A stretch of 61,846 bases of DNA, from positions 1-61,846 of the forward strand of contig CAVHUN010000066.1 of NCBI GenBank assembly GCA_963639175.1. The letters run 5' to 3'. Source of the stretch: an uncultured Prevotella sp. (GTDB lineage Bacteria > Bacillota_I > Bacilli_A > RFN20 > CAG-288). Below the pieces are notes generated by a model that saw only the letters and a list, made by a program, of their open reading frames with translations, did not search any database and was not told where the DNA came from. Positions within the stretch are counted from its first letter, which is position 1; each line of letters starts with the position of its first letter. The translations under genes and the position numbers were made by a program. Positions 1,617-50,257 of this stretch are shown piece after piece.

Positions 1617-2411
1617 TTATTCAAATTTCAATTTCTCAATGACATTTAAATTGTATTTTTTAATGTAATTTACCACAATATCGTTAGCAAGTTGATTATC
1701 GATTTGATTAGGGGCATGAGCATCTTGACCAACTATAACTTTAGCGTTAAATTTCTTGCAGGTTTTTAAAAATAATTCTGTAGGATAAAAATATCTATTT
1801 TCTTCCCCTATTCTTTGTTTGCCATTTCTAATTCCAGCTACATTTATTTCTAAAGGAATATCTAATTTAACACATAAACCAACTAAATCATCCATGACTT
1901 TTTTAACATCTTTATCAACTGTTTCAATATTAGACATAAAATAATCAGGATGAGCAAAACAATTAAAGCATCCAGTTTGTAAACTTGAAAAAGCTAAGTC
2001 TCTATATAAATATAATTCAGATGCATTAGTAATTTTAGAAAAATGGCAGAATAATTGCTTATTTTCATTCATAGCAAAATGATTTCCTAATATTAAATAA
2101 TCTATCTTTTTAGAAGAGATAATCTCTTTATAAAATGGATAATAAAGTGGAAAGGCTTCTGCTTCAAATCCAACATATATTTTCATTCTATCTTTGTATT
2201 TTTCTTTTAAAGAATTAATTGAAGAAATATAGTCTTCCATTAAAGAATAATCTCCTCTAATTCCAACTTGAGAAAAGTTAGGTAGCATAATATGATCAGA
2301 AAAGCCTAATTCATACATACTAGCTCCTAAAGCTTGTTTAACATAATCTTCATCTTTACCACTTGCATGGCCACATCTAGATGTGTGAGTGTGATAATTA
2401 GTCTTCAACAT
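1617..2411 (-). CDS. PHP-domain phosphatase, HisJ (histidinol-phosphatase) family
   Basis: N-terminal NYHTHTSRCGHASG, plus internal HPDY and DAH motifs typical of PHP/HisJ phosphoesterases. Confidence 0.7.
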   Translation of the reverse strand: MLKTNYHTHTSRCGHASGKDEDYVKQALGASMYELGFSDHIMLPNFSQVGIRGDYSLMEDYISSINSLKEKYKDRMKIYVGFEAEAFPLYYPFYKEIISSKKIDYLILGNHFAMNENKQLFCHFSKITNASELYLYRDLAFSSLQTGCFNCFAHPDYFMSNIETVDKDVKKVMDDLVGLCVKLDIPLEINVAGIRNGKQRIGEENRYFYPTELFLKTCKKFNAKVIVGQDAHAPNQIDNQLANDIVVNYIKKYNLNVIEKLKFE

Positions 2412-3144
2412 AATAATATACCTTATCTAATATTAACCCATTTGCCTCAGCTTTTAGACTAATATGTTGTTTATTTTTTCCTTCTAATTTATCTATTATA
2501 TCATCTAAAGAAAGCTTATTCATGCTTGTTAATAAGCTAGCACCTATCATGTATCTAATTTGATAACGTCCAAATGCTCTTCCTGTAATTAAAACTTTGT
2601 ATCGGGTTTGATCAACTTGACTTACACTTACATCTTCAATTTTTTTATATTTATCTTCTTTATCATCTTCTAAAGAAAAAAAGCAAGAAAAATCATGTTC
2701 ACCTTTAAAAAGTAAACAGGCTTTTTTAAATAATTCAACATCACATTTATATACAAAATTAGCGCAAAATCTATCTTTTAAAGGATCGTTAGGTCCAAAA
2801 TTAATATTGTATTCATATCTTTTCATATAAGAATTAATTCTAGAAACAAAACTAAGCTGAACAAATTTACAATCCAATATTCTTATATAATTTGGTAACA
2901 ATCTATTTAACACATATTTTAATTGTTTTGGCTCAAACTTTTCTTCAACTATAAAATTAGCAATAAATTCTCTTGCAGAGACTCCTTTATCTAATCTTGA
3001 TCCCATTTTTAAAGGAACTTCTATATTAAAAAGCTTTTCAAGAGTCTTTTTTAATAAGCCTTGAACAGTATAATAATTCGATTGAATTTGAGTACCAGTA
3101 AAATAAAGGCCATCAAATGTAAATATCAATAAATAATTAACCAT
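2398..3144 (-). CDS. truA: tRNA pseudouridine(38-40) synthase TruA
   Basis: N-terminus FDGLYFTGTQIQ, an Asp loop SRLDKGVSA (variant of RTDxGVHA), ~248 aa, and the conserved position after ecfT. Confidence 0.75.
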   Translation of the reverse strand: MVNYLLIFTFDGLYFTGTQIQSNYYTVQGLLKKTLEKLFNIEVPLKMGSRLDKGVSAREFIANFIVEEKFEPKQLKYVLNRLLPNYIRILDCKFVQLSFVSRINSYMKRYEYNINFGPNDPLKDRFCANFVYKCDVELFKKACLLFKGEHDFSCFFSLEDDKEDKYKKIEDVSVSQVDQTRYKVLITGRAFGRYQIRYMIGASLLTSMNKLSLDDIIDKLEGKNKQHISLKAEANGLILDKVYYYVED

Positions 3145-11063: not shown

Positions 11064-11708
11064 ATGCAAAACAATGAAGAAATTAATATCTTAAAACAAG
11101 ATGTTTTAAAAATGTACAAGGATGTAAAAACAAACTTAGAACAAGCCTTTGACTGTTTATTAAAATTTGATTCAAATAAAGAATACACCTTAATTGATGA
11201 TACTAAAATTGATGCTCAAGAAAGAAAAATAGAACAAAAATGTCTACACTTAATGCTAACAGAAAGACTATTTGCTTATGAAATTAGATTTGTCCCAGGA
11301 GTTATGTGTTTAGTTCAAGATTTAGAAAGACTAGGAGATCACGCCCAAGATATTCAACATTTTGCCCTTAAATTAAAACAAGAAAACATCTCTAGCTGGA
11401 TAAAACTTAAAAAATTAATATCATTTGTATTTGAAATGGTCGAAAACGCTATAAAAGCCTTTGATACATCTGATGCAGAACTAGCAAAAAAAGTCATAAG
11501 TGATGATGACCATGTTGATCAAGTGTATGAATTAATCTTAAAAGAATTAATTGAAAAAGATCAAGAACATATAATTACATCTAGTTATGCTTTATATACA
11601 ACATTAATAGATAAATATATAGAAAGAATAGCAGATCACGCAACTAACATTGCCGAATGGTCTATATTTATTATCCTAGGCTATTATAAAGACGCACAAA
11701 TAATTTAA
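11064..11708 (+). CDS. phoU: phosphate signalling regulator PhoU
   Basis: Two PhoU repeats carry LGDHAQDI and IADHATNIAEW. It is the last gene of the pst operon. Confidence 0.9.
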   Translation: MQNNEEINILKQDVLKMYKDVKTNLEQAFDCLLKFDSNKEYTLIDDTKIDAQERKIEQKCLHLMLTERLFAYEIRFVPGVMCLVQDLERLGDHAQDIQHFALKLKQENISSWIKLKKLISFVFEMVENAIKAFDTSDAELAKKVISDDDHVDQVYELILKELIEKDQEHIITSSYALYTTLIDKYIERIADHATNIAEWSIFIILGYYKDAQII

Positions 11709-11736
11709 TTAAAATCATAAAATTTTCAATCACAAT

Positions 11737-11775
11737 AAAAGATGAAAGCTATAATTAACTTCCATCTTTTAATTT
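11737..11775. terminator. hairpin terminator between the convergent phoU and lipoprotein genes
   Basis: AAAAGATGAAAG (11737-11748) pairs with CTTCCATCTTTT (11758-11770) with one mismatch. It is flanked by A/T runs. Confidence 0.6.
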
Positions 11776-11807
11776 TGAATATTTATTTATAATTTTAAGT
11801 CTACTAA

Positions 11808-14105
11808 TTAAGCAGCTGCTTTATCAGAGATTACTAATGACATAGATTTAATGTTATTAGTAATTTCTACACTATTAATTTCGTAGAAACCCCAACTAAA
11901 TGTTGCAGCTAAATCTTTTGAAGTATTATCATTATATGTAATAGTTAATTTCACATCTAATTCCGATAAATATACTGAATAATTGCCACTAGAATCATAT
12001 TCAAAGGCAGTGATTGATACATTTATTTTATTACCAACTGTAATAGTATTTGTACTTGTTGTGACTTCAGAAGTTGCAACATTTTCCTTGCTTATTTCGA
12101 ATTGATTATTAACATCATAAATTCTAAGTTCAGGTATTCTATTTACACTTTCATTCTTATATGAGAAATCAATACTAATTTTTTCTGATTCAACAATTGT
12201 AGATTTTAATGAAACATCACCATCTGGCATTATAAATTCAACATACTTACCACTATAAGAAGATTGAATTGTTAATTCGGTTGTTATATCACCATTAACT
12301 AATTCAATTTTAGATAATTCATATCCAAATTGAACACTAAGTTCAATTTTAACAGTATCACCTTCAGCAAATGTAGAAGTATTACTTTCAAAATTTGCTC
12401 TTACTTTTGTTTCATCTTTTAAATCAGCATCCAATGTAACTGTATGGGCTGTTGCAAATGTAAATGTAACGTTAGCTACACCATTTTCAGGCATTTTACA
12501 TTCAACATATCTAGTACCACCATATTTTACTTTTGCATCATATTTTATAGCTTCACTACTAGTTCCATCAGAAATTGTAGCACCAGTTAAAACAAATCCA
12601 GTATTAACTGTTGGGAATAATACAAATGTATCACCAGCACCAAAACTATTTAATGAACTTTCACCAGATGAATCAACTGAATCTTTAACTGATACCTCAC
12701 TAAAATGTGTTGTATCTTCAGTTATTGTAATTGTACCACATGAAACTGCATTTATAACTATAGTGAAATCATTTCCATCACTAGGAGCTGTGAAACTATA
12801 AGCTGTTGCACTTACTGCATTTTGATAACTTGCAATAACGGCGGCTGATTCAGCGCCTTTAAAATATGCAGTTCCTAATTTGAAACCTTCTTTTGCTACA
12901 GCAACTACATAAAATTCACTTCCTGGAGCTACTTTATTATCAGTAACCTCATTATAGTAATAACCATTTCTAGCAAAGATTTTATAAGAAGAAATATTAT
13001 TATCAGCTTCTATAGTAACTGTTGGATATGCAGTAGCAGTAAATGTAATTGTTACATCTTTACCAGGCATTGTAAAACTTACATTAGTACTATATCCACT
13101 ATTTTGAATTTCACCATCTTCAGTTGTTATTTTACAAGTGACTGAAACTCCACTAATAGGAGTATAGTAGAAACTTACTGTTTCACCTTCGATATATGAT
13201 GAACTAGGAGTTTGTGAAAATGTTACATATTCTCCACCAACAATTGTTAATGAATGAGCACTAACTTCTTTAGCTTCAACTTTAATTGTAATATCATCAG
13301 TTATACTAGCACTTAAAGAAATACTTGTAAAATCTTGATACCAACTTGTATAAGTAATATTGACTTCATTAAAATCACCATCACCTATTTTATAGCTAAC
13401 CTTTGTTAAAATCATAGTTTTAGATCTATATAAACCAAAGCTATATAAGTTAGTTCCTTGTTTTAAACTGCTAGGCAAAAATGCTACTAATCCATCAGTT
13501 ACATCTAAAGTAACTGTTTTATCAGTATCTGTTGCTTCAGTTGTATATGCATCATACATACCAACAATAAAGTCAACTTCAGTTTTATCACCTACTTCAG
13601 GCATAATAAATGAACCAACAAGATCACTTCCACTTACTTCAACATTAAATGCAATCTTATGTCCTGCAATATCAATTAAAGCACCTGAATTATAGTTATC
13701 AACTCTACTTGCCATACCTTGTATTGTATAAGTTACTGTATCACCAGTAGAATAACCATCTGCTTTATCAAATGTAAATGTAGCATCAATTGATGCATAA
13801 CATATTACATTAAATGTATGCTTAACCTTTTCTTCTTCACTTGAAGATGAACTAGAGGAAGAAGATTCACTACTAGATGTACTTGATGAAGATTCACTAC
13901 TTGATACTGAGGAAGAACTAGAAGATGAACTTACACTGCTAGGGGTACTAGATGAAGCAGCACTACTTGAAACTTGAGCACTAGATGCAGAGGATTCTGG
14001 TGCTGAAGAGGATGTAGAAGAGCTTGTTGAAGAAGTATTATTATCACATCCAGCTAATAATAATATTGCCATTAATGGCAAAACGAATAATTTAGATTTT
14101 TTCAT
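11808..14105 (-). CDS. Ser-rich surface lipoprotein with repeated beta-modules (paralogue A, 765 aa)
   Basis: MKKSKLFVLPLMAILLLAGC lipobox, then a ~65-aa poly-Ser/Thr/Ala tether. Repeated ~90-aa modules follow, each ending in an F-x-MP-x-x-D/G-V-x-I/V-x-F motif (SFIMPEVGDKTEVDF, SFTMPGKDVTITF, CKMPENGVANVTF, EFIMPDGDVSL). These resemble divergent InlB B-repeat-type modules. Confidence 0.75.
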   Translation of the reverse strand: MKKSKLFVLPLMAILLLAGCDNNTSSTSSSTSSSAPESSASSAQVSSSAASSSTPSSVSSSSSSSSVSSSESSSSTSSSESSSSSSSSSEEEKVKHTFNVICYASIDATFTFDKADGYSTGDTVTYTIQGMASRVDNYNSGALIDIAGHKIAFNVEVSGSDLVGSFIMPEVGDKTEVDFIVGMYDAYTTEATDTDKTVTLDVTDGLVAFLPSSLKQGTNLYSFGLYRSKTMILTKVSYKIGDGDFNEVNITYTSWYQDFTSISLSASITDDITIKVEAKEVSAHSLTIVGGEYVTFSQTPSSSYIEGETVSFYYTPISGVSVTCKITTEDGEIQNSGYSTNVSFTMPGKDVTITFTATAYPTVTIEADNNISSYKIFARNGYYYNEVTDNKVAPGSEFYVVAVAKEGFKLGTAYFKGAESAAVIASYQNAVSATAYSFTAPSDGNDFTIVINAVSCGTITITEDTTHFSEVSVKDSVDSSGESSLNSFGAGDTFVLFPTVNTGFVLTGATISDGTSSEAIKYDAKVKYGGTRYVECKMPENGVANVTFTFATAHTVTLDADLKDETKVRANFESNTSTFAEGDTVKIELSVQFGYELSKIELVNGDITTELTIQSSYSGKYVEFIMPDGDVSLKSTIVESEKISIDFSYKNESVNRIPELRIYDVNNQFEISKENVATSEVTTSTNTITVGNKINVSITAFEYDSSGNYSVYLSELDVKLTITYNDNTSKDLAATFSWGFYEINSVEITNNIKSMSLVISDKAAA
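14043..14105 (-). repeat. conserved signal-peptide cassette, copy 1 (matches 16505-16567)
   Basis: Codons 1-21 differ from the copy at 16505-16567 at a single synonymous position (TCT vs TCA). The mature parts are strongly diverged. Confidence 0.9.
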
Positions 14106-14160
14106 ATTAATTTTTCTTTCCTTTATTAATGGTTTTATTTTAACATTAAAAAATATGCGA

Positions 14161-14239
14161 ATATATTGAAACCGCTTTCATTTAAAAGAAAAATTAAAGG
14201 CTACTAATAATTTAATTTTATTTAAATTAGTTAGTAGCC
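14161..14239 (-). repeat. terminator-plus-upstream-region cassette, copy 1 (homologous to 18264-18329)
   Basis: ATATATTGAAACCGCTTTCA...GGCTACTAATAATTTAATTTTATTTAAAT..TAGTAGCC aligns with TATATTCAAAACGCTTTCA...ACCGCTAATAATTTAATATTATTTAAAT..TAGCAGTC. Confidence 0.75.
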
Positions 14240-14240
14240 T
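14198..14240 (-). terminator. rho-independent terminator of the 773-aa lipoprotein gene
   Basis: On the minus strand, the stem GGCTACTAA/TTAGTAGCC is followed by TTTAATTTTTCTTTT. Confidence 0.7.
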
Positions 14241-14269
14241 ATGTTTTATTTTTTGGATTATGTTATTTA

Positions 14270-16567
14270 TTAAGCAGCATGATCATATACTGCAATTTCT
14301 ATAATTGCAATATCTGAAGTAACTTTTATATTTTCAATAGAATAATTTCCATGAACATAGTTTGCATTTATTTCCTTATAAGATTTATCTTTATAAATAA
14401 CTGTAACTTTAACATCAAATCTTTGAGTTGTATTAGTATCACCTATTGAAATAATAATTACTCCACCTTCTTCAATTTCAGCAGTTGTTTCTTTATAATC
14501 TTGTTTAGATATTCCTTGACTAAAAATATAACTATTCATATTTTGTATTGAAACTGAATCAATATCATATGAACTATAATTATTTACTTCAAACTTAATT
14601 GATGCTTTAGGTGCATCTTCTAAAGTTGCTGAAATAGTAATATTCTTTTCTGGCATATTAAATTCAACATATTTTTGATTATATTCATTAGTTTTTATTT
14701 CTAATTCAACATCATTTTCACCATCGTTGTATTTTACTGATTTAAGTACTTTGCTAGAATTTATAACACTAATTCCGACTTTAACTGTATCATCTTTTAC
14801 ATGTTTTGTATTGTTATTTTCACAAGAGAAATATACATCATTTGTATTTTCAAGTGTTATTTCATATGTCTTTTCAAAAGTAAATGTGAACTTACAAATT
14901 CCACTATTTGGCATGGTTGCTTCAATATAATATCCATTATTATCATATTTAGAATATGAAAGATTACTATCACTACCATCACTTACTAATGCACTTACTA
15001 ATTGATAACCGCTAATTACACTAGGTTGAATTTTAAATGTTTCACCAATTCCAATATTATCTAAAGTAGATGTATTTCCATTATTATCAATGATATTCAC
15101 TTTATTAAAATATGTTGAATCTTCTGTATAAGAAATTTTACCTAATTTAACTGTATTAATAACTATAGTAATACTTTCAGTTGCATTAGAAGGCATATAG
15201 AAATTAAATCCATATAATTTCATTGATGCATGTGAACTTGTAGCAGAAAATGTTTGTTCATAAGGAGTAACTTTATTAGTTTCATCTCCTTTAATATAAG
15301 CAGAAGTAACCTTATATCCTTCTTTTACTTTAGGAATAACATAGAAAGATGAATAATTATTTGCTTTATTTGTTTCTATATAATAACCTGCAGTACTATT
15401 TGGCTTAGCATAAATAGTTGTAGATTCAATATTTTCATTATTTTCAATAATAATTGAAGGGAAAGAAGTAGGAACAAATGTAATAGTTACATCATTAGTA
15501 GGCATATTAAAGCAAATGGAAGTTCCACCACGAGTATTTGTAGCACCTTCAATTGTATAAGTTACATTATATCCATCAACTGCATTATAAGATAAATCAA
15601 CTGTTTCACCTTCTAAATAAGTAGCACTAGGAGTAGAAGTAAAATTAACATATTCTCCACCAACAATATTTAAATTGCGCTTTTGAGCAACTTTAGTCTC
15701 AATCTTAATTGTTAAATTGTCATAAACTTCTAAAGAAAGATCAATAGAAGCAAAATTATTTTTCCAAATTAAAGAAGAATCAACACTTATATATTCCCCT
15801 TCTCCTAATTTATATGAAATCTTGCTAATAACAATATCTTTAGATCTATATAAAGAAAAACCAGATATTCTAGAACCAGTTTTAATAGTTTCAGGAGCAA
15901 TAGCCACAATTCCATCTCCTAAATCAAAAGATATATTTTTAGAATCGCTAGCTTCTGTATTTGTATAAACACTATATTGACCAATAATAAAATCAACTTC
16001 TTTTTCTTCACCTACTTCAGGCATAGTAAATGAACCAACAACATCATTTCCACTTGCTTCAACATTAAAAGCGATATTATGGCCACCAATATTTATTAAT
16101 GCATAATTAAAACTACTAATTGAACTTGCCATATTTAATATAGTGTAATTTACACTATCGCCAGTTTTATAAGAAGTCTTATCAAATAAAAATGAATCCT
16201 TAGAAAGACCATAAACAGCATTTTCTTGAATCTTAATATTAAATGTATGCTTACCTTGTTCATCTTCACTTGAAATAGAAGAAGATGATGTTGAAGTAGA
16301 ACTACTAGAAGAACTATAAGCTGATGAAGAGCTAGTACTACTAGAAGAACTTACACTGCTAGAAGTAGATTCACTACTTGAAAGTGAAGATGAACTAGAA
16401 GAAGGTGAAATTGCACTACTAGATGTACTAGATGAAGATGAGCTAACTAAACTAGAAGGAGTTTGAGAATTAGAAGATGAAGATGTACTTGAAGAAGTTT
16501 TATCATCACATCCAGCTAATAATAATATTGCCATTAATGGCAAAACGAATAATTTTGATTTTTTCAT
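14270..16567 (-). CDS. Ser-rich surface lipoprotein with repeated beta-modules (paralogue B, 765 aa from the ATG)
   Basis: Same architecture as 11808-14105. I place the start at the ATG at 16567, which gives an N-terminus identical to the paralogue (MKKSKLFVLPLMAILLLAGCD), not at the TTG at 16591 of the ORF track. Confidence 0.75.
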   Translation of the reverse strand: MKKSKLFVLPLMAILLLAGCDDKTSSSTSSSSNSQTPSSLVSSSSSSTSSSAISPSSSSSSLSSSESTSSSVSSSSSTSSSSAYSSSSSSTSTSSSSISSEDEQGKHTFNIKIQENAVYGLSKDSFLFDKTSYKTGDSVNYTILNMASSISSFNYALINIGGHNIAFNVEASGNDVVGSFTMPEVGEEKEVDFIIGQYSVYTNTEASDSKNISFDLGDGIVAIAPETIKTGSRISGFSLYRSKDIVISKISYKLGEGEYISVDSSLIWKNNFASIDLSLEVYDNLTIKIETKVAQKRNLNIVGGEYVNFTSTPSATYLEGETVDLSYNAVDGYNVTYTIEGATNTRGGTSICFNMPTNDVTITFVPTSFPSIIIENNENIESTTIYAKPNSTAGYYIETNKANNYSSFYVIPKVKEGYKVTSAYIKGDETNKVTPYEQTFSATSSHASMKLYGFNFYMPSNATESITIVINTVKLGKISYTEDSTYFNKVNIIDNNGNTSTLDNIGIGETFKIQPSVISGYQLVSALVSDGSDSNLSYSKYDNNGYYIEATMPNSGICKFTFTFEKTYEITLENTNDVYFSCENNNTKHVKDDTVKVGISVINSSKVLKSVKYNDGENDVELEIKTNEYNQKYVEFNMPEKNITISATLEDAPKASIKFEVNNYSSYDIDSVSIQNMNSYIFSQGISKQDYKETTAEIEEGGVIIISIGDTNTTQRFDVKVTVIYKDKSYKEINANYVHGNYSIENIKVTSDIAIIEIAVYDHAA
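16505..16567 (-). repeat. conserved signal-peptide cassette, copy 2
   Basis: 62 of 63 nt are identical to 14043-14105. Confidence 0.9.
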
Positions 16568-16634
16568 GTTAAATATTAATTTCCTTTTCAAAACATTTTT
16601 ATTTTATCATGAATATATATTTATAAAATATATA

Positions 16635-18263
16635 TTAAGAAAACTTTGCACAAAGCACTATACAAATTTAACTAAATAGAATAAACAAAATGTTGAAGCA
16701 TGTATTTTTAAACTTTTATAGAGGAAATACATGCTTTTCATTGGAAAAATATAAGCAAAATGTTATAATGTATAGTGTAAATACACCACTATACAAAGGA
16801 TACAATTATGGCAATACCAAAAGAAATATTAGATATTAAAAGACCTAAAAATACTAGAGTTAAAAAGAATGGAAATCATTATGATGTTATTAAAAGAACA
16901 TGTGTTTATAAAGATGGTAGAAGAGTTCCTAAAGAAATCGGAAAGATAGGTGAAATCATAAATGGTAAATATTATGACAAATCTAAAGATAAGATTGAAT
17001 CTTTGTCTTTTTCAAATATAGATATTAAAGAATTTGGCAGAACCAAATTATGCCATAAGCTAAGTGAAGAAATCTTAACTTCTTTAAGAACTTGCTTTTC
17101 TGAAAGTGATTCTCAACAAATATATGTTATGGCACTTCTAAGAAGTGCATATCCTCATATTACAGATAGAGATATGAAATATCGTTATGACACTTCTTTT
17201 ATTTCAACTCATTATCCAAGTGTTCATCTATCAGAAGTTAGCATTTGTAAATTTCTAGAATTACTTGGCAGGAACTATAATAGCCTTCATAAATATATGC
17301 AAGAAAGATTAGATGAAAGAGATAAAGATTGTATTACTATTGTGGATGGTATGTTAAAAGACACTACTGGAAAAGAAAGTAGCTTTGTACAATGGTCAAG
17401 AAAATCTAGAATAAAAGGAACAAAAGAAATATCTGTTCTTTACGCCTTTGATGCAGTTAAAGGGGAACCAATATGTCATAAAGTATACCCTGGAAATATG
17501 CTAGATATGTCTTCTTTTAATGATTTTATAGATAAATTTACATTAAAAGATTGTATGGTAATGGGGGATAAAGGCTTTTTAAGCAAAGAAAATATTGCTG
17601 ATTTAAAACAAAAGAAGCAAGTTCACTTTTTGCTTCCTTTAAAAAGATCTGATAAAAGAATTAACAATTTAAAACTTCTTTGTTTTCAAGGGACATTCAT
17701 TGACGAAGATGATGTTATTGAATATTCTAAAATTGAAAAAGATAAAATGTTTTATTATTGCTTTAAAAACAGTACAGATGCAGCAAGCGAAAGAAAAGGT
17801 TATCTTTTAAAGACACAAAAAGAGGAAAATTATAATAAAGAAAAATTAGATAAAAAAGATGATAAGTTTGGAATTATATGTTTTGAATCAGATCAAGATA
17901 TGAATCCAAAAGATGTATATTCAATGTACGATAAAAGATGGGAAATCGAAATATTTTTCGGATTCTATAAAAATATAGTTGGACTAAATAATGTAAGAGT
18001 AGATGGTGATTTAAGTATAATTGGTTCTGAATTTATCAATATGATATCAACAATAATATCATTAAAGTTAAAAAGAAAATTCATTGAAAAGAAACTAGAT
18101 AAAAAGTATTCTTTCTCACAAATAATGAACTATTTAGATCAAATAAAAAAGTTCAAAGATTCTGAAGGAGTTTGGAAAGATACAACAACTTTGAAATATA
18201 TTTCTGAACTCAAGGAATCCTTAGAACTTTAAAGTATAGTGGTGGGATTTAAAGTTTTATTAA
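16635..18263 (+). mobile_element. insertion sequence, IS1634/IS4-superfamily-like, ~1.63 kb
   Basis: Imperfect terminal inverted repeats. The left repeat is TTAAGAAAACTTTGCACAAAGCACTATAC (16635-16663). The right repeat, revcomp of 18234-18263, is TTAATAAAACTTTAAATCCCACCACTATAC. It holds a single DDE transposase ORF and is flanked by TATA on both sides. It interrupts a sequence that is contiguous in the paralogous intergenic region at 14141-14180. Confidence 0.75.
16808..18232 (+). CDS. DDE transposase (IS4 superfamily, IS1634-like)
   Basis: Candidate DDE residues lie in TIVDGML and VMGDKGF. The C-terminal motif YDKRWEIEIFFGFYKN matches Y-x2-R-x3-E-x6-K. An extended -10 TGTTATAAT sits at 16761-16769 and the RBS AAAGGA at 16795-16800. 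Confidence 0.8.
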   Translation: MAIPKEILDIKRPKNTRVKKNGNHYDVIKRTCVYKDGRRVPKEIGKIGEIINGKYYDKSKDKIESLSFSNIDIKEFGRTKLCHKLSEEILTSLRTCFSESDSQQIYVMALLRSAYPHITDRDMKYRYDTSFISTHYPSVHLSEVSICKFLELLGRNYNSLHKYMQERLDERDKDCITIVDGMLKDTTGKESSFVQWSRKSRIKGTKEISVLYAFDAVKGEPICHKVYPGNMLDMSSFNDFIDKFTLKDCMVMGDKGFLSKENIADLKQKKQVHFLLPLKRSDKRINNLKLLCFQGTFIDEDDVIEYSKIEKDKMFYYCFKNSTDAASERKGYLLKTQKEENYNKEKLDKKDDKFGIICFESDQDMNPKDVYSMYDKRWEIEIFFGFYKNIVGLNNVRVDGDLSIIGSEFINMISTIISLKLKRKFIEKKLDKKYSFSQIMNYLDQIKKFKDSEGVWKDTTTLKYISELKESLEL

Positions 18264-18329
18264 TATATTCAAAACGCTTTCAATAAAAAGACCGCTAATA
18301 ATTTAATATTATTTAAATCACTAGCAGTC
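18264..18329 (-). repeat. terminator-plus-upstream-region cassette, copy 2 (split from its promoter-proximal half by the IS)
   Basis: See 14161-14239. This copy begins exactly at the right IS boundary. Confidence 0.7.
18290..18329 (-). terminator. rho-independent terminator of the 5-gene lipoprotein operon
   Basis: On the minus strand, GACTGCTA...TAGCGGTC (one mismatch) is followed by TTTTTATTG. Confidence 0.6.
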
Positions 18330-18372
18330 AACCCATTAGTTTATATATTAATAATCAAATATAAACTATGAA

Positions 18373-43576: not shown

Positions 43577-44623
43577 TTAATATATTAAAATGCCATTGCC
43601 TTTTTCTTCTTGTTTAAACACTACTTCCCCATTCAAACCATTTACAATTTTTGAAATAACTTGTTGGAAACCAAGTAATGCTTCAGCTTGTTTTTCTAAG
43701 ATTTGAGGATCTAATTTGTTTTTCAAATCTTTTACGAAATTGAACTTAAATCCTTCTAAGAAAATATATAAAGTGTCTTCTTTTAAAAGAATAATTACAT
43801 CAGTTTTAACATAAAATGATAATTTACTAATCGCATCAGCAACTTTCTTATTAATAATTAAATAAACTTCTTGACCTAATGTGGTATAACAAATAAAGTT
43901 TGTAATACTTGATATTTCATCAAAACCATATTTATTAATTTTCAAGCCATCAAATCTATCAAAGCTAGGTTCCCCACTTGATCTAATTTCTAAAAATGAA
44001 TGAGTTCTAACTTTAGATAACTTAGTAGAAATTAACAATCCATCTTTTTTAGATTCATTGTCATTTTTATATTTATAAGCATACATTTTTAAATCTACTA
44101 ATGATGTCTTTAATTCATATTGACTACCTATTTTAGAATTATAAATAGACATGCTTTCTAATACCTTTTCATTATCTTTAATTACATCTAATTTTTCTTG
44201 GTAATTAGTATCTAACAATATGCCGTTTAATTTAGCTTCACTAATTAAACTCTCTTCATATTTTTTTCTATATTTCTTATTGAGTTTTAAATAATGTAAC
44301 TTAACATACAATAAGCAAATAAATACACAAACTAATATGACTACTAATAATATAACTAATCTATAGATGCTCTCTTTAATAGAAAAGTCAAATAAAGACA
44401 CATTAGTATCAAAATAAGGGATAAAATTTAAAGCGCTTACACTTCCAAAAAAATTATTATTAAACAAAAAATAACCTCTAGATAAGCTAGCTAAAAACAC
44501 ATATGCAAAATAAAGCAAAAATACCCCTAGGCTAATTGATATCCCTTGTAGAATATTTCTTCTGATTAACTTTTTTTGTTCTTTTTTAATATAACTTGTT
44601 CCAGAATATACTGTTTTTCCCAT
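43577..44623 (-). CDS. membrane protein of unknown function (possibly DUF3137-like), first gene of the glg transcription unit
   Basis: Two to three N-terminal TM segments plus a ~220-aa soluble domain. Its stop is 10 nt from the glgC start. The family assignment is from memory of the sequence pattern only. Confidence 0.35.
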   Translation of the reverse strand: MGKTVYSGTSYIKKEQKKLIRRNILQGISISLGVFLLYFAYVFLASLSRGYFLFNNNFFGSVSALNFIPYFDTNVSLFDFSIKESIYRLVILLVVILVCVFICLLYVKLHYLKLNKKYRKKYEESLISEAKLNGILLDTNYQEKLDVIKDNEKVLESMSIYNSKIGSQYELKTSLVDLKMYAYKYKNDNESKKDGLLISTKLSKVRTHSFLEIRSSGEPSFDRFDGLKINKYGFDEISSITNFICYTTLGQEVYLIINKKVADAISKLSFYVKTDVIILLKEDTLYIFLEGFKFNFVKDLKNKLDPQILEKQAEALLGFQQVISKIVNGLNGEVVFKQEEKGNGILIY

Positions 44624-44755: not shown

Positions 44756-47700
44756 TTAATTATTTGCGTTTAATTTTCTTTTATCAACATATCTATCGAT
44801 TCTAGAACGGTTGTGTTTAGTATCGTGCATTACAACTAAAGTCAAATCTACTTCGTTAACTAAATCGGTAACTTTTTCAGTAGGTGTTGATAATATAGCT
44901 TGTAATCCAAAGCTTCTTAATAATGAGACAGCTTCTTTAATTCTTGAACCATCCATTTTTGAGAAAGCTTCATCAAAGATAACTAATCTAATTGTATCTG
45001 CATTTGAATCGTTACTTCTATAAAGTTGAGCAAAGGAAGCTAATATTGAAATGTAGAAAGGAGTTTGAGTTTCACCACCTGATTGTCTTTTGAATGTTCT
45101 TGCTAAACTTGATTCAGATTCATTAGAGCCTCTTTTAACTAATAAGTCAAAGACTAAATAGGTTCTATAATCAGTGAACTTTTCAACGTTTTGAATAATT
45201 TCTTGTCTAGTAGCTATATCATTAGAAGAACTTGAATCGCTAATTAAAGCGAATAAGTTATTCATAATTGGACCATATTTTTCTAAATAGATATCTTCAG
45301 CATCACCAACATTTAATAATAAATCATCAGTGATCATCTTGTAATATTCAATATAGTCTTTATTAGGTTCAACTGAGAAACGATATGAGTCTCTACCAAA
45401 CTTGACATCTTTTAAGGCTTGGTTTAAATCATCAATTTGAGCTTTAATAGTTTCAAATGAATTTCTAAGTTTATAAATAAAGTCATCTTTGAATTCTTTA
45501 ATAGCTTTATTATGAGCAGATTCAATTTGTTTTAAGTAACTAGGAAGCATGACATTTTGTAAGTTTTCTAATTCCTTATCAAAGTCAGCATTTGAATCTT
45601 CTTTAGTTGTATCATAAGACAAATTATAGACTATGGTGTACTTACTTCTTAAATCAACAAGCTTGTCTTTAGCATTCTTTTCTCTATTTTGCATTTGAAC
45701 ATAAGTAGATTGAGCTTCTTGTTTAATTCTAGTAAGAGGCATATTTTCCATAGCGTTATCGAAAAATGGAGCGTATTTTGTCTCAACTAATTCTTGATCA
45801 AATCTCATCAATTTATCACCAAACATAGTAAGGGCGATATTTTTAGCAGGAATTAAATCATTAACAAGTGTCTTATTAGTATTTTCTAATCCACCTTGTT
45901 CAATTAATAACTTATTCTTTTCATCTTCTAATAATTTGATATCAGCATCAATGTCTGCAATCTTTTTATCAAATGCAGAGACTTCATTTAAATCACCTTC
46001 ATGTAATTGTTGTTCTAAATGTTCAATTTCTTGATTGTAAGAATCAACTAATCTCATATCTTCAATATCAGAAATATAGGTGTTAATTTCAGAAGAAGAA
46101 ATAACTTCTAACATTGAAATAGATTTAACATAGGAATTTAAATCGTTATATAAATCTAATTTTCTAGAGATAACATTTAAATCTTCATTTTTAGAAAATT
46201 CAGATTCATTTGAAACTTTAGTACCAATAAAAGGAACATTTCCCTTTCTTTCATCTAAATAGAACGAAGCGAAGTTTCTATAACCAGTGCAGTTTGTTAA
46301 TAAACCATTTCCAGATTCTCTTGCTTCAGCAAATGTTTCGCATTTTTTAACTTTACCAAGTAAGAAATCTGCATATGCTCTTGCGCCTTTATTTGAAGTG
46401 ATAATTTCTTCAGCAACTGAACCATTTGATGCACTAAATTCTCTTTCAATTAATTTTCTTGTATCAACTAATGAAATTGAATAGACATTATATTGTTTAC
46501 AAATCTTAGCTAACATCTTAGCAGCATCTTCATAATATTGATCATCGACAAATAAATTGAATTTTTGATTGAAGATATAAGCTTCTATTGCCTTAGTCCA
46601 TCTTTTATCTTTAATGTCCCACACATCGCAAAATGAAGTGACTTCAACATAATCAAATTTGTCGTTTAATTCATCTTTAAGAGCTTCTTTAATTTGTAAA
46701 TATGTTAAATTAAATGGTTTTTGACCTGAATGAATAGCGCTAATTTCACCGCTTATTGATTTTACTTTGTCATTTAAAGAAGAAATTGAATTTTCAAGTA
46801 AATGACCCATTTTCAAAGCGTAAGAATGTAAAGATGCCATTTGAGATTGGAAATCTTCTAATAAAGCAGAAGAGACATCTTTGATATTTAAACCATTTAA
46901 TAAATCTTGGCAAATAGAAGAAAAGTCAATAATAACATTTTTAAAATCATCTAAAGTATCATTTTCTTTATCTGACAAAAATGAAACATCTAAATTAGCT
47001 AATCTACTATTAATTGCTTTAATTGCATCATCATATTGTCTTAAATAGCTTTTTAAAGTTGTAGATAATAAATTATAGTTATTTTCTAATGAGGCGATCT
47101 TTTCTAATGTAGCGTTCTTTTTAGCTAAGATAGAACTAGATAAAGAATATCCACTTGAACCGACCTTTTTAGCTAAATAAGATTCAGATTCTTTTTTAAG
47201 TTCATTAATTTGTTCATCTTTTTCTTTTAATAATTTACCAATTTGGATAATTCTTGCATTGTTATTTTCTAAAGTTGATTTGTATTTATCTAATTCAACT
47301 TTACAAGTTTCATAATTAGCTCTATCAGTGACATAATCAGCTAATTGTTTATCTTGTTTAGCTTTTTGTAAATTATCATAAGCTTGTTTGATAGCAGTTA
47401 AAGCATCAATTTTAACTTGAATCTTTTTAGCTTCTACTTCTAATAATTTATATTGTTCAATGTTATTTCTCATTGAAGAAATATCGACATTATAATCAAT
47501 ATCGCAGACAAATTCAGTAATAAAGTTAGAAATATTAGTAATTGGAGTAAATGAAACTGCCTTTTTAAATAAGGAAAGATATTTATCAGGTAAGTCACCA
47601 AAGATTTGTTTTAAGAATGTTTGATAACTTAAATTTGTGTCAAAGAACTTATATTGATTTGATTTGTAATTATTTTGGAAAAAAGTTGATAATTCTTTAT

Positions 47701-48163
47701 AAGATAATGGTCTAGAAATTTGATTATCTAAACTATCTTTATTTGTAAAGTTGTTTTCTGGGAAATTATCTTCTAAATAGAAGAAACGATGTTCTTCTTT
47801 ATCATCTTCATAACAATCAAAGACAACACCTAAAGTGAAATTAGAATCATTAGAAGTATCTTTAAATTGTAAAGCAATATAAGAAGTAAATCTTCCAGGA
47901 CGTAAGCACATTATTTGACCTTGGCTTGTTTCACCAGTTTCGCATCTTAAATATCCTCTAAGTGATCTTCCTGTTTTTTCATTAGCGGCTTTGTTGAAGT
48001 TTCTACCAGAAGTATCACCAAGTAATACTATTTGCATAGCATCGATAATTGTTGATTTACCTGTACCATTAGAGCCAGTTAAAAATGTGATGTTTTTAAT
48101 ATCGACTGTGTCGTTAGCAAATAAATGCCAGTTAATTAATCTTAATTTATTTAATTCTTTCAT
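44756..48163 (-). CDS. jetC: SMC-like ATPase, JetC/MksB family (1135 aa)
   Basis: N-terminus LRLINWHLFANDTVDIKNITFLTGSNGTGKSTIIDAMQIVLLGD...FNKAA. A long coiled-coil middle region follows. The C-terminus carries the signature QSGGETQTPFYI and Walker B LVIFDEAFSKMD. Confidence 0.8.
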   Translation of the reverse strand: MKELNKLRLINWHLFANDTVDIKNITFLTGSNGTGKSTIIDAMQIVLLGDTSGRNFNKAANEKTGRSLRGYLRCETGETSQGQIMCLRPGRFTSYIALQFKDTSNDSNFTLGVVFDCYEDDKEEHRFFYLEDNFPENNFTNKDSLDNQISRPLSYKELSTFFQNNYKSNQYKFFDTNLSYQTFLKQIFGDLPDKYLSLFKKAVSFTPITNISNFITEFVCDIDYNVDISSMRNNIEQYKLLEVEAKKIQVKIDALTAIKQAYDNLQKAKQDKQLADYVTDRANYETCKVELDKYKSTLENNNARIIQIGKLLKEKDEQINELKKESESYLAKKVGSSGYSLSSSILAKKNATLEKIASLENNYNLLSTTLKSYLRQYDDAIKAINSRLANLDVSFLSDKENDTLDDFKNVIIDFSSICQDLLNGLNIKDVSSALLEDFQSQMASLHSYALKMGHLLENSISSLNDKVKSISGEISAIHSGQKPFNLTYLQIKEALKDELNDKFDYVEVTSFCDVWDIKDKRWTKAIEAYIFNQKFNLFVDDQYYEDAAKMLAKICKQYNVYSISLVDTRKLIEREFSASNGSVAEEIITSNKGARAYADFLLGKVKKCETFAEARESGNGLLTNCTGYRNFASFYLDERKGNVPFIGTKVSNESEFSKNEDLNVISRKLDLYNDLNSYVKSISMLEVISSSEINTYISDIEDMRLVDSYNQEIEHLEQQLHEGDLNEVSAFDKKIADIDADIKLLEDEKNKLLIEQGGLENTNKTLVNDLIPAKNIALTMFGDKLMRFDQELVETKYAPFFDNAMENMPLTRIKQEAQSTYVQMQNREKNAKDKLVDLRSKYTIVYNLSYDTTKEDSNADFDKELENLQNVMLPSYLKQIESAHNKAIKEFKDDFIYKLRNSFETIKAQIDDLNQALKDVKFGRDSYRFSVEPNKDYIEYYKMITDDLLLNVGDAEDIYLEKYGPIMNNLFALISDSSSSNDIATRQEIIQNVEKFTDYRTYLVFDLLVKRGSNESESSLARTFKRQSGGETQTPFYISILASFAQLYRSNDSNADTIRLVIFDEAFSKMDGSRIKEAVSLLRSFGLQAILSTPTEKVTDLVNEVDLTLVVMHDTKHNRSRIDRYVDKRKLNANN

Positions 48164-48172
48164 ACTAACTCC

Positions 48173-48790
48173 TTAGTTGTTATCTTGATTTTCTGGATTA
48201 ACAAGCATGTTATACAATGCATTTAATCTAGCATTTGAAATAACATAACGAATGCTTGGTAAGATGTAAAATTCATAATTAGAATCGTTAAATGACCCCT
48301 TAGATAAACAGATGATATTATAAGAAGATAAAGTTCTTAAGCTAGCTTGAATAGTGACATTAGAAATTCTTTTTGAAACTGTAGATAAAGCTAAATCTCT
48401 TAATAACCCTCTTAAACTAGAAGCATCCATTTTTACTTCGTTAGATGAAGTGTTATTGCCTAACTTATCTTCATAATATGAACGTAAAGCGTAAATTACT
48501 AAAGTAGTAACTCCATCAATTCTAATCTTATTTGTATCTAAATCAGAAGTGGTGTAAATTACCCCATTATCTGAATCCATATTTAAACTGATACCTGCAA
48601 AATCTAAATAGTCACTTATTAAATCATAATGTCTTTCAACAAATAAATAAGATGAATTGATTTTGCCTAAGGAAGAAGTTTTATCAAAAGTTCTTCTTAC
48701 TAAATAGCATCTATATAATAAAGTAGAAACAACATCTTGGAATTGAGCTTGTTCGCCCCTACTTAATTTAGAATAATCTTCTTCAAACAT
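48173..48790 (-). CDS. jetB: JetB/MksE-like (DUF4194-type) subunit, 205 aa
   Basis: Assigned by size, by position between the kleisin-like and SMC-like genes, and by a DUF4194-like pattern (FQDVVSTLLYRCYLVRR...YLFVERHYDLISDYLDFAGISL). The RBS of jetC overlaps its stop codon. Confidence 0.6.
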   Translation of the reverse strand: MFEEDYSKLSRGEQAQFQDVVSTLLYRCYLVRRTFDKTSSLGKINSSYLFVERHYDLISDYLDFAGISLNMDSDNGVIYTTSDLDTNKIRIDGVTTLVIYALRSYYEDKLGNNTSSNEVKMDASSLRGLLRDLALSTVSKRISNVTIQASLRTLSSYNIICLSKGSFNDSNYEFYILPSIRYVISNARLNALYNMLVNPENQDNN

Positions 48791-48793
48791 AAA

Positions 48794-50257
48794 TTATTTT
48801 CTTCCTTTCTTTGTAAAGCAGTAATTAGGAACAATAAACTTGTCTAATACATATGTTTCATCTAATCTTTCAATTGTGTAGAACATATCATTAAATTGAG
48901 CTCTAACTGTCGCTAATATCAATAAAATCATATCGTCTAAAGTATTTAAAGAAATATCTTTAGTAGTGATTTGTTTTTTATCGCCAAAGTTTTTCAACAT
49001 GAAATCAATGATTGCATCTTGAGAATATTTATTAACTTCTTCTGCAATGTAATTTGTTAAGCTATCATCATCTGAAAATAGTTCATCTTCAAGTGGCATT
49101 GGTTCACAATCTTCTTTTTCTCCTCTTTTAAATGGCATAGTAAGAGAATCAGAATTTACAAAGCCTTGTCTAAATAAATTAACAGTATCACTTGCTTGAG
49201 AAATAACTTTCAAATTAATGTATTCATCATGATAATCATTTGGTAAGCTATCAATAGCTTTAGCCATAGCAAGAATAATTGTATCTAATTTACCCTTAAT
49301 TGACTTATCTGAATTAGATAAGTAATTAACTTTCTTTTGAACAGCTTGAATATAATTTGAATTAGCCTTATCAATTTCATCAAAACTATTTGAAAGTTTA
49401 GAATAAATATCAATAGTTTGTTGAATCATTCTATTGACAATATCAAATACATCAGATGACTTCATTTTAGAATAGGCTGGATCAAATTTAGCTTGAGAAA
49501 CTAATTTAGCCATTATTCTTTTATCGCGTTGCCATCTTTTTAAAATGTTAGTAACTGGTAAAGCGTAAAGTCCTAATGAGTCATATGTTTTCATTGGGTG
49601 ATAAATTTTATCTCCGATTTGTTTTTGGAAGACATCAAAATGTTGACTTAAAGCGTCATTAGGATTAAATATTGTTGTTAATTTATGACCATATACACAA
49701 ATTGAATGGTGTAATAATGTGACATTTAATTCAAGTTCATCAGCATTCTTTCTTGCAGAAGCTAAAGAGCGGAACATATAATCATCTTCTTTTTCATCTT
49801 CTAAAGACAATTCAGAATATGTTTGGTGAACTAAAGGAATATATAAAGAAGTATCACTAGATAAATCTTCAATTAATTGGATCATCTTAATTGTATAACC
49901 AGGCAAATAAATCATATCGATATTTGTCTTAGTATCTTTTTCAACATCGATCCAACCAGTAGAGACTAATTTTCTAAATATGTAATTAGTCTTAAAATTT
50001 ATTGAATCTTGTTCAGATTCAACAAAGACGTTTTCTTCATCTACTTTATCATCTAATTTATCAAGATTAACATCAAACAAAGCTAATAAATCACTACCGC
50101 GACTTCTTAACATATTGATATAATCTGACTTTTGAATATTAGTCTTATAAGTTTTTAAGCATTCAAATAAAGTGAGTAAAGAATAAACATAAACATTTTT
50201 ATATTTTCTTGAGAGAATTGTGAAAAAATTCTCAGGTATTTTATCAAAAAGATTCAA
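48794..50257 (-). CDS. jetA: JetA/MksF-like kleisin-type subunit, 487 aa, TTG start
   Basis: Assigned by position and size in a three-gene A-B-C arrangement. The stop is 3 nt from the jetB start. A TTG start has AGGAG 8 nt upstream. No diagnostic motif is verifiable by eye. Confidence 0.5.
   Translation of the reverse strand: MNLFDKIPENFFTILSRKYKNVYVYSLLTLFECLKTYKTNIQKSDYINMLRSRGSDLLALFDVNLDKLDDKVDEENVFVESEQDSINFKTNYIFRKLVSTGWIDVEKDTKTNIDMIYLPGYTIKMIQLIEDLSSDTSLYIPLVHQTYSELSLEDEKEDDYMFRSLASARKNADELELNVTLLHHSICVYGHKLTTIFNPNDALSQHFDVFQKQIGDKIYHPMKTYDSLGLYALPVTNILKRWQRDKRIMAKLVSQAKFDPAYSKMKSSDVFDIVNRMIQQTIDIYSKLSNSFDEIDKANSNYIQAVQKKVNYLSNSDKSIKGKLDTIILAMAKAIDSLPNDYHDEYINLKVISQASDTVNLFRQGFVNSDSLTMPFKRGEKEDCEPMPLEDELFSDDDSLTNYIAEEVNKYSQDAIIDFMLKNFGDKKQITTKDISLNTLDDMILLILATVRAQFNDMFYTIERLDETYVLDKFIVPNYCFTKKGRK

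Follow-up and report, generated by a model that had tools for sequence, protein, structure and literature searches.

The genes A (11808-14105) and B (14270-16567), which lie in tandem on the minus strand of contig CAVHUN010000066.1 (GCA_963639175.1; 61,846 nucleotides (nt), analysed over its whole length and referred to here as the window, whose numbering is used throughout), encode two lipoproteins of 765 amino acids (aa) that begin with almost the same 63 nt of DNA and continue into deeply divergent bodies. We consider it probable that A and B are old tandem duplicates in which the leader has been homogenised by short recombination within the locus, and that the locus displays evolutionary variation and not a programmed switch. 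The homogenising event was most likely an old, short gene conversion or a chimeric event, a mechanism that we infer from directly observed sequence patterns, phylogenetic incongruence and strain differences. The family is new and uncharacterised and the evolutionary pattern is one already known; no new mechanism is involved, shared leaders on divergent lipoprotein bodies being familiar from Mycoplasma and Borrelia. What the locus offers is an internally controlled case of concerted evolution confined to a 63-nt leader, in which comparison with orthologues separates selection from conversion.

Near-identity of the two leader cassettes

The leader cassettes occupy positions 14043-14105 in A (MKKSKLFVLPLMAILLLAGCD, codons 1-21) and 16505-16567 in B, both on the minus strand, and are identical at 62 of their 63 nt. 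The lone difference is synonymous, TCT in A and TCA in B at codon 4, and the original prediction of a single synonymous change in the first 63 nt is thereby borne out. Over the rest of the codon alignment the two genes share 57.7% of their nucleotides and 42% of their amino acids (39-40% in the mature part). A sliding identity profile of A against B is not flat, and the 5' window is its top outlier at 98%, against a mean of 58%. The longest run of identity is 51 nt, compared with a maximum of 38 nt in 10,000 permutations of the codon columns. Where the residues are identical, the codons are also identical at 20 of 21 positions in the leader but at only 179 of 257 elsewhere (p = 0.005), and against an expectation of about 6 synonymous differences the leader contains one (p = 0.004). 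The synonymous divergence (dS) of the leader is 0.08, and the proportion of synonymous differences (pS) between the mature parts of A and B is 0.46, a saturated value comparable with the 0.42-0.51 seen between genes of the window and those of a sister-species contig (L004). A second, weaker island of identity pairs 13541-13683 with 15961-16103 (82% over 143 nt, reaching 92% in some windows of 63 nt, with third positions included); it spans the first F-x-MPEVG module (...AFNVE.SG.D.VGSF.MPEVG...) and may be either a conversion tract of greater age or a motif under strong constraint.

The cassette is not a generic feature of lipoproteins in this organism. The five other lipoprotein genes of the cluster to which A and B belong have leaders that are all different, so that the cassette is not the standard lipoprotein leader. 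The species-representative genomes of GTDB were scanned for DNA encoding FVLPLMAILLLAGC, and JGI metagenomes for PLMA[IM]LLL[AV]GCD, with 0 matches in each; protein searches with the leader alone (doubled, or as leader plus 24 residues) gave nothing at E <= 10 and are uninformative. Within each cassette, codons 8-13 include a perfect 16-nt palindrome (TTGCCATTAATGGCAA; 14066-14081 and 16528-16543). There are 4 perfect palindromes of at least 16 nt in the window, and the leader pair alone has 6 G/C (0.18 expected). A 12-nt core (GCCATTAATGGC) is retained in P2, the protein of a sister species described below, and the outer pairs are not. The palindrome could be an RNA hairpin, a binding site, or a chance product of the P-L-M-A codons; Rfam gave no match over 11600-18500.

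The regions upstream of the two cassettes are also related, as had been proposed for the 5' untranslated regions (UTRs) and terminator cassettes, although only at a much lower level. The intergenic regions between the upstream Big_2 lipoprotein gene and B, and between B and A, share a terminator hairpin, a GAAAGCG box, an extended -10-like motif (TGNTAAAAT) and a ribosome-binding site (RBS), most clearly in the conspecific strain L005 in which no insertion sequence (IS) intervenes. They are about 65-70% identical overall by eye, with indels, and the identity breaks at position -1. The B-A intergenic region (14106-14269, minus strand) has its paralogue in the region upstream of B and contains, besides the terminator hairpin of B (14198-14240), the RBS of A and a TGTTAAAAT motif that is promoter-like; the terminator hairpin of the Big_2 gene (18290-18329, minus strand) is paralogous to that of B (88% over 32 nt), so that the duplicated unit took in the intergenic region. 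A and B are each preceded by their own terminator, promoter-like TGNTAAAAT motif and RBS. The sole homopolymer tract upstream of A is a T6, the same in three strains, and there is none upstream of B.

Sister species, strains and the origin of the shared leader

In sister species the gene is present as a single copy at the same position (L004, with P2; L002, with P5; L006 and L007, with P8 and P7). P5 and P8, from species that are about 87% identical in housekeeping DNA, provide a control for the effect of selection. Their leaders are identical at 20 of 20 residues with a pS of 0.49, and their mature parts are 57% identical; the leader residues are kept while synonymous sites diverge as they do elsewhere, which is the pattern of purifying selection alone. 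The leaders of A and B are identical at synonymous sites also, unlike those of P5 and P8, and selection alone therefore does not explain them. By its mature part A is closest to P2 (63% aa identity; phoU of that species is 84% identical in nucleotides), and the leader of P2 differs from that of A by 8 nt and 6 aa, against 1 nt for the leader of B. A neighbour-joining tree of 629 mature columns groups A with P2 (100%) and then this pair with A1, the A allele of a second strain (87%), leaving B outside them. A1 is excluded from the A and P2 group with 100% support even though it comes from the same species as A, and A, A1, B and P2 are split from P5-P8 with 100% support.

Three conspecific metagenome-assembled genomes (MAGs) were available, namely that of the window, L001 (GCA_963651245.1) and L005 (GCA_963609905.1). 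The pst/phoU flank of L001 and L005 is 97.9% identical to the window, and both carry the tandem B-A arrangement. The paralogue marker is the same in 3 of 3 strains, with TCT in A, TCA in B and the remainder of the leader identical, which places the homogenising event before the split of the strains and indicates that exchange is not frequent. Comparison of the locus across these strains, a check that the original prediction had put forward, shows a mosaic A allele, polymorphism of tether length, a nonsense codon in B and an IS insertion. Gene B is 96-97% identical throughout. Compared with the A of the window, the L001 allele of A (A1; protein P0003) is mosaic: identity is about 97% at nt 1-300 (leader, tether and KHTFN), falls to 42-58% across most of nt 300-1380, returns to 93-97% in the stretch nt 1441-1560, and is 42-82% further downstream. 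The divergent parts of A1 have no close match to any known family member. That they were copied from B was considered and rejected, as the best local identity is 61% at the amino acid level and the residues are ancestral states common to P5-P8. The length of the Ser-rich tether, counted from Asp21, is 74, 74 and 83 aa for A and 85, 89 and 89 aa for B in the three strains. In gene B of L001 a CAA codon is replaced by an in-frame TAA within the Ser-rich region (L001 190-192), the ensuing internal open reading frame (ORF) of 620 aa is found also in an independent Logan assembly, and this copy of B is probably a pseudogene.

Between species, the rate of nonsynonymous change (dN) is 0.29-0.38 for this gene, 0.21-0.26 for the Big_2 gene and 0.04-0.12 for the M6-like and 579/667-aa lipoprotein genes, phoU and the ECF ATPases (most neighbours lying at 0.08-0.12), making the A/B family gene the fastest-evolving member of the cluster. 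The corresponding dN/dS ratios are 0.44-0.76 for this gene, about 0.4 for Big_2, and 0.07-0.24 for the M6-like, 579/667-aa and housekeeping genes. Taken together, a high dN, alleles that are mosaics, differences in length and sporadic inactivation mark out a surface-exposed antigen on which diversifying selection acts, the exposure and the selective agent being presumed from these patterns. A and B probably represent the most exposed and fastest-diversifying surface protein of a poorly known, uncultured, low-GC lineage of gut Bacilli, and such loci are candidate interfaces with host immunity or phage receptors, candidate markers for strain typing, and candidate break sites in metagenome assembly.

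Structural variation is also present in the species that carries P7 and P8. Two contigs, L029 (1-60) and L030 (3782-3840) (ENA ERZ15610538 and ERZ15610557), share a junction, identical in both, from which the gene runs on from its nt 739. The gene is joined in L030, the contig encoding P0021, to a reverse-complemented infC leader, and L029, the contig encoding P0020, has 51 nt of that flank only. The deletion or rearrangement has removed or relocated the first 246 codons as well as the five upstream lipoprotein genes, and the shared junction explains the 'truncated' cluster proteins of 465-466 aa (P0020 and P0021). An interpretation of these proteins as phase-off variants was rejected; they reflect a structural variant shared within the sister species and not a frameshift switch. 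Separately, L030 contains a small lipoprotein-like ORF (1725-2456, minus strand) with an A8 tract right after the ATG that places it out of frame, where A7 would give MKKIYSLLLPLLLLVSCNQ...; the tract is either a candidate for homopolymer phase variation or an error in a contig of 5x coverage.

The original prediction took an identical 5' end to imply gene conversion or strong constraint; chance does not account for it, and recombination or concerted evolution is the best fit. In the course of events that we favour, an ancestral surface-lipoprotein gene, which closes a conserved cluster of 6-7 lipoprotein genes and evolves fastest among them, would have been duplicated in tandem long ago, and a gene conversion or chimeric join at the leader would have given rise to the 63-nt near-identity after the split from the single-copy sister species and before the three strains diverged, with selection on the leader peptide probably helping to keep the homogenised leader. 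Recombination at the population level would act through joints (the leader, and in A the leader with the tether and KHTFN) flanking bodies of which mosaic pieces pass from one deeply divergent allele to another; replication slippage would account for the changes in Ser-rich length between strains; and copies would now and then be inactivated as alleles and paralogues diversify under diversifying selection. Several observations count against this course of events. Each of the three strains has the fixed TCT/TCA difference, so that no conversion has occurred since they diverged, and the sample of the species is three genomes, none of them complete. The synonymous-site statistics draw on only about 13 sites (p ~0.004-0.005), and the position of B at the base could be a long-branch effect of a fast-evolving copy. 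The identical tract also corresponds almost exactly to the leader-coding segment, from the ATG to the codon after the Cys, which is the expected product of selection and a coincidence for a random conversion tract. Such borders are what would be seen if the leader peptide, and perhaps a nucleotide element such as the palindrome TTGCCATTAATGGCAA, were strongly purified and no recombination had taken place, an explanation that gains from the complete retention of the 20 leader residues between two species of the sister clade whose mature parts are 57% identical, and from the presence of a perfect, GC-containing palindrome in both cassettes with its 12-nt core kept in P2. We nonetheless regard selection without recombination as unlikely. 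Where selection has acted by itself, in P5 and P8, the synonymous sites have diverged as elsewhere (pS 0.49); the leader of the nearer relative P2 has 6 aa changes, so that constraint on the peptide is not strong in this lineage; the leaders of the five neighbouring lipoproteins are unrelated; and the palindrome has lost its outer pairs in P2 and has no match in Rfam.

The same data bear on whether B is instead a young copy, with a body driven to rapid divergence by positive selection and a leader that has not had time to diverge. The high dN/dS of the family (0.3-0.8) would fit a young B, and three-taxon distances alone leave a long B branch possible, but synonymous sites in the mature part are saturated at a level seen between species (pS 0.46), the upstream non-coding DNA is only about 65-70% identical, with indels, and B falls outside A and P2 in both the four-point and the bootstrap analysis. 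Saturation of the body together with divergence of the upstream DNA would exclude a recent duplication, and we give it very little credence. Slightly less credible still is a programmed system of antigenic or phase variation of the mycoplasma Vlp/Vsp/Vpma/Vsa type, in which the 5' cassette would be a recombination or expression site. A shared leader on divergent bodies, a mosaic allele in one strain, size variation in the Ser-rich region, and inactivated or truncated copies in some strains are all compatible with programmed switching, but there are only two copies, co-oriented and each with a terminator, promoter-like region and RBS, the 5' UTRs are less conserved than the leader, and the T6 tract is invariant and the paralogue marker stable in three strains; nor did scans of the larger ORFs of the window and of the syntenic loci of relatives disclose a tyrosine or serine recombinase, and neither a bracketing pair of inverted repeats nor homology to the mycoplasma families was found. 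An assembly artefact, with the 63 nt arising by repeat collapse or mis-joining in a MAG, is scarcely worth entertaining: all of the sequences do come from metagenome assembly, and contig breaks tend to fall within or close to the A/B family gene, but the same arrangement and the TCT/TCA marker are seen in three independent assemblies. Alongside the old duplication and homogenised leader that we favour, a bolder and rather improbable extension is that a modular surface-antigen system of uncultured gut Bacilli, working at within-host speed, uses the palindrome-bearing leader cassette and the tether/KHTFN block as joints dedicated to recombination, with bodies swapped between paralogues and between strains or species while the module for export and tethering stays fixed. 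Such joints would be a functional analogue of mycoplasma expression sites, run by homologous recombination without a site-specific recombinase.

The encoded proteins and their genomic neighbourhood

The ORFs and their translations confirm the predicted pair of tandem minus-strand genes for lipoproteins of about 765 aa with a shared architecture, and the coordinates are correct. The window has a GC content of about 27% and its long ORFs read under the standard genetic code. Gene A is the paralogue adjoining phoU, with an allele that is hypervariable between strains; for gene B, read from its ATG, a TTG at 16591 is an alternative start that would add 8 codons, and the MKKSKL start is kept in all homologues. 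Both proteins open with MKKSKLFVLPLMAILLLAGC, a canonical lipoprotein signal, and in both genes and all homologues a positively charged segment MKKSK, a hydrophobic segment LFVLPLMAILL and LAGC lead to Cys20, within a lipobox of the form [LVI][ASTVI][GAS]C near residues 15-25. There follow a Ser-rich tether, 74 aa long in A and 85 aa long in B, in which Ser makes up about 65% of the residues, and, in A and B alike, an acidic hinge and then KHTFN. Tether and hinge together occupy 13824-14042 in A (aa 22-94) and 16253-16504 in B (aa 22-105). The mature ectodomains, on the same strand, extend over 11811-13823 in A, from KHTFN, and over 14273-16252 in B, the latter being 39-40% identical to A in amino acids and branching outside A, P2 and A1.

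An AlphaFold2 model of A has a mean predicted local distance difference test score (pLDDT) of 81, with residues 1-90 disordered (about 30, as for the tether and hinge as a whole) and residues 95-765 all-beta and mostly at 85-94 (80-94 across the ectodomain). From the strand pattern we infer about 7 immunoglobulin-like (Ig-like) beta-sandwich domains resembling the InlB B-repeat. The F-x-MP-x-x-[DG] motif, which the earlier count put at the end of each of 6-7 beta-modules, occurs in 5 copies per protein. Foldseek comparison of the model with the PDB returned generic multi-Ig chains only (LILRB/PirB, Gram-positive pilins and gp130) with template modelling (TM) scores <0.15, a sequence search of the PDB gave noise only, and Tandem Repeats Finder detected no tandem repeats in the mature part, with weak repeats in the Ser-rich region only. 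The scores to PF18998 (InlB B-repeat/Flg_new_2) are 17.2 bits for A and 20.6 bits for B, under the Pfam gathering cut-off of 23.6 bits, and the remote homologues P0031 and P0033 are over it with 49 and 119 bits. It is likely that Cys20 is acylated and that the disordered Ser tether (74-89 aa) holds a rod of about 7 Ig-like domains off the membrane, which suggests an adhesin or a shield-like surface antigen.

An IS of the IS1634 family is present at approximately 16629-18262 on the plus strand, with bounds taken from the IS-free L005, a transposase gene at 16808-18232 and 18-nt terminal inverted repeats at 16630-16647 and 18251-18268 that are 94% complementary. The transposase is of the DDE type (NF033559, 136 bits against a cut-off of 100). 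The insertion site is about 62 nt upstream of the start codon of B, between a possible TTGAAA -35 element and the conserved TGATAAAAT motif, and the IS may alter expression of B. It is present in the strain of the window only; L005 has the empty site, and the short stretch available upstream of B in L001 is also without it. The presence of an IS beside the locus, noted at the outset as typical of variable families, is thus real, but its absence from the two other strains makes it incidental to the locus.

A and B are the last of seven consecutive lipoprotein genes on the minus strand, which are, from the upstream end, two M6-metalloprotease-like genes, a 579-aa gene, a 667-aa gene, the 938-aa Big_2 gene, B and A. 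The first five occupy 18373-28292, and their products have short Ser/Thr-rich linkers after the lipobox; the M6 pair is 'immune inhibitor A'-like, and the family of the 579- and 667-aa proteins is unknown. The cluster, which looks like a dedicated surface-protein island, is syntenic in related MAGs (L002, L004, L005 and L006). The family proper is small, with eight clusters at 90% identity among 5.8 billion sequences and three representatives at 50% identity among 1.84 billion sequences, other matches being distant multi-domain relatives. An exact look-up of protein A found no record, its closest relatives being P0002 (P2, 61%) and the mosaic P0003 (A1, 57%), and profile searches for distant relatives recovered homologues of at most about 42% identity, none with a functional annotation. 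EzrA, together with the style of the lipoproteins, indicates Bacillota/Bacilli as the source of the window. 'Clostridium sp. CAG:568' has a distant relative, as do MAGs labelled 'uncultured Bacilli', and the metagenome matches are from the human gut. The ENA titles of three MAG contigs, L008, L010 and L011 (the last the same as L006), are a misfit ('Faecalibacterium prausnitzii', 'Alistipes communis' and 'Phocaeicola dorei'), so that either the names are unreliable or the bins contaminated; the L011/L006 contig has 26% GC and is syntenic with the Bacilli-type locus. Elsewhere in the window, a Wadjet-type anti-plasmid defence operon is located at 44756-50257 (JetA, 48794-50257; DUF4194/JetB, 48173-48790; SMC-like JetC, 44756-48163), and the adjacent ORF at 43577-44623 may be JetD.

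Comparison with known systems

The original prediction saw in the locus the hallmark of the mycoplasma Vlp, Vsp and Vsa families. In the Vlp system of Mycoplasma hyorhinis a homopolymer tract of variable length lies in the promoter spacer, unlike the situation here, where no homopolymer tract varying among the three strains was found. In common with the Vlp, Vsp (Mycoplasma bovis), Vpma (Mycoplasma agalactiae) and Vsa (Mycoplasma pulmonis) systems, the locus has clustered lipoprotein genes, a leader far more conserved than the mature part, low-complexity or repetitive regions of variable size, strain-to-strain variation, and a genome low in GC from within the Bacilli/Mollicutes radiation. In Vsp, Vpma and Vsa both the 5' UTR and the leader are conserved, and the former carries the recombination sites; a tyrosine recombinase gene (xer1, mbr or hvsR) lies next to the locus, DNA inversions bring genes under the one promoter, the coding regions contain repeats, and the cleavage motif is AAKC (PMC2268961). 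Here, in contrast, two genes lie on the same strand, each having a separate terminator and promoter-like region, homogenisation does not extend into the 5' UTR, and there is no adjacent recombinase of the Xer1/Mbr/HvsR type and no inversion site. Pfam and NCBIfam scans of the larger ORFs of the window (62 kb) and precomputed Pfam matches of the syntenic loci disclosed no integrase or recombinase, the sole mobile-element gene among them being the strain-specific IS1634-family DDE transposase, and no significant inverted repeats were found bracketing A and B. The cleavage motif is LAGC and not AAKC, folded Ig-like domains take the place of short tandem repeats, the genetic code is standard, and Pfam and NCBIfam gave no match to mycoplasma lipoprotein families. 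Of the proposed hallmark only the shared leader is therefore present, and the search for further family copies found only the two co-oriented ones, although the strain-to-strain variation anticipated with them is there. Judged by its sequence, the locus is like Vsp, Vpma and Vsa in outcome and is not a member of that group, no switching machinery being seen.

Surface proteins of Bacillota with PF18998 domains offer a likeness in the mature part, as they are also strings of beta-sandwich modules of about 70-90 aa, and the AlphaFold2 model has the appearance of Ig-like beads on a string. They differ in their attachment, which for A and B would be by an N-terminal lipid and Ser tether and not by LPXTG or GW modules, and A and B score under the gathering threshold for the domain. 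In Borrelia, the OspE/OspF/Elp (Erp) and Mlp families have near-identical leader peptides on divergent or unrelated mature lipoproteins, a pattern ascribed to recombination and not to a dedicated switch. Those families are many-membered and plasmid-borne and share an upstream promoter box as well, whereas here there are two chromosomal tandem copies with the leader alone homogenised. The pneumococcal antigens PspA and PspC are mosaic and hypervariable and are kept so by homologous recombination. They resemble the present locus in having a conserved leader, N-terminal part and flanks, deeply divergent mosaic alleles at one locus, and high dN, and differ from it in fold, anchoring and organism, and in that there is an extra tandem paralogue here. 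By analogy, the Erp/Elp/Mlp lipoproteins of Borrelia and antigens of the PspA type would appear to be as close to A and B as the mycoplasma systems are.

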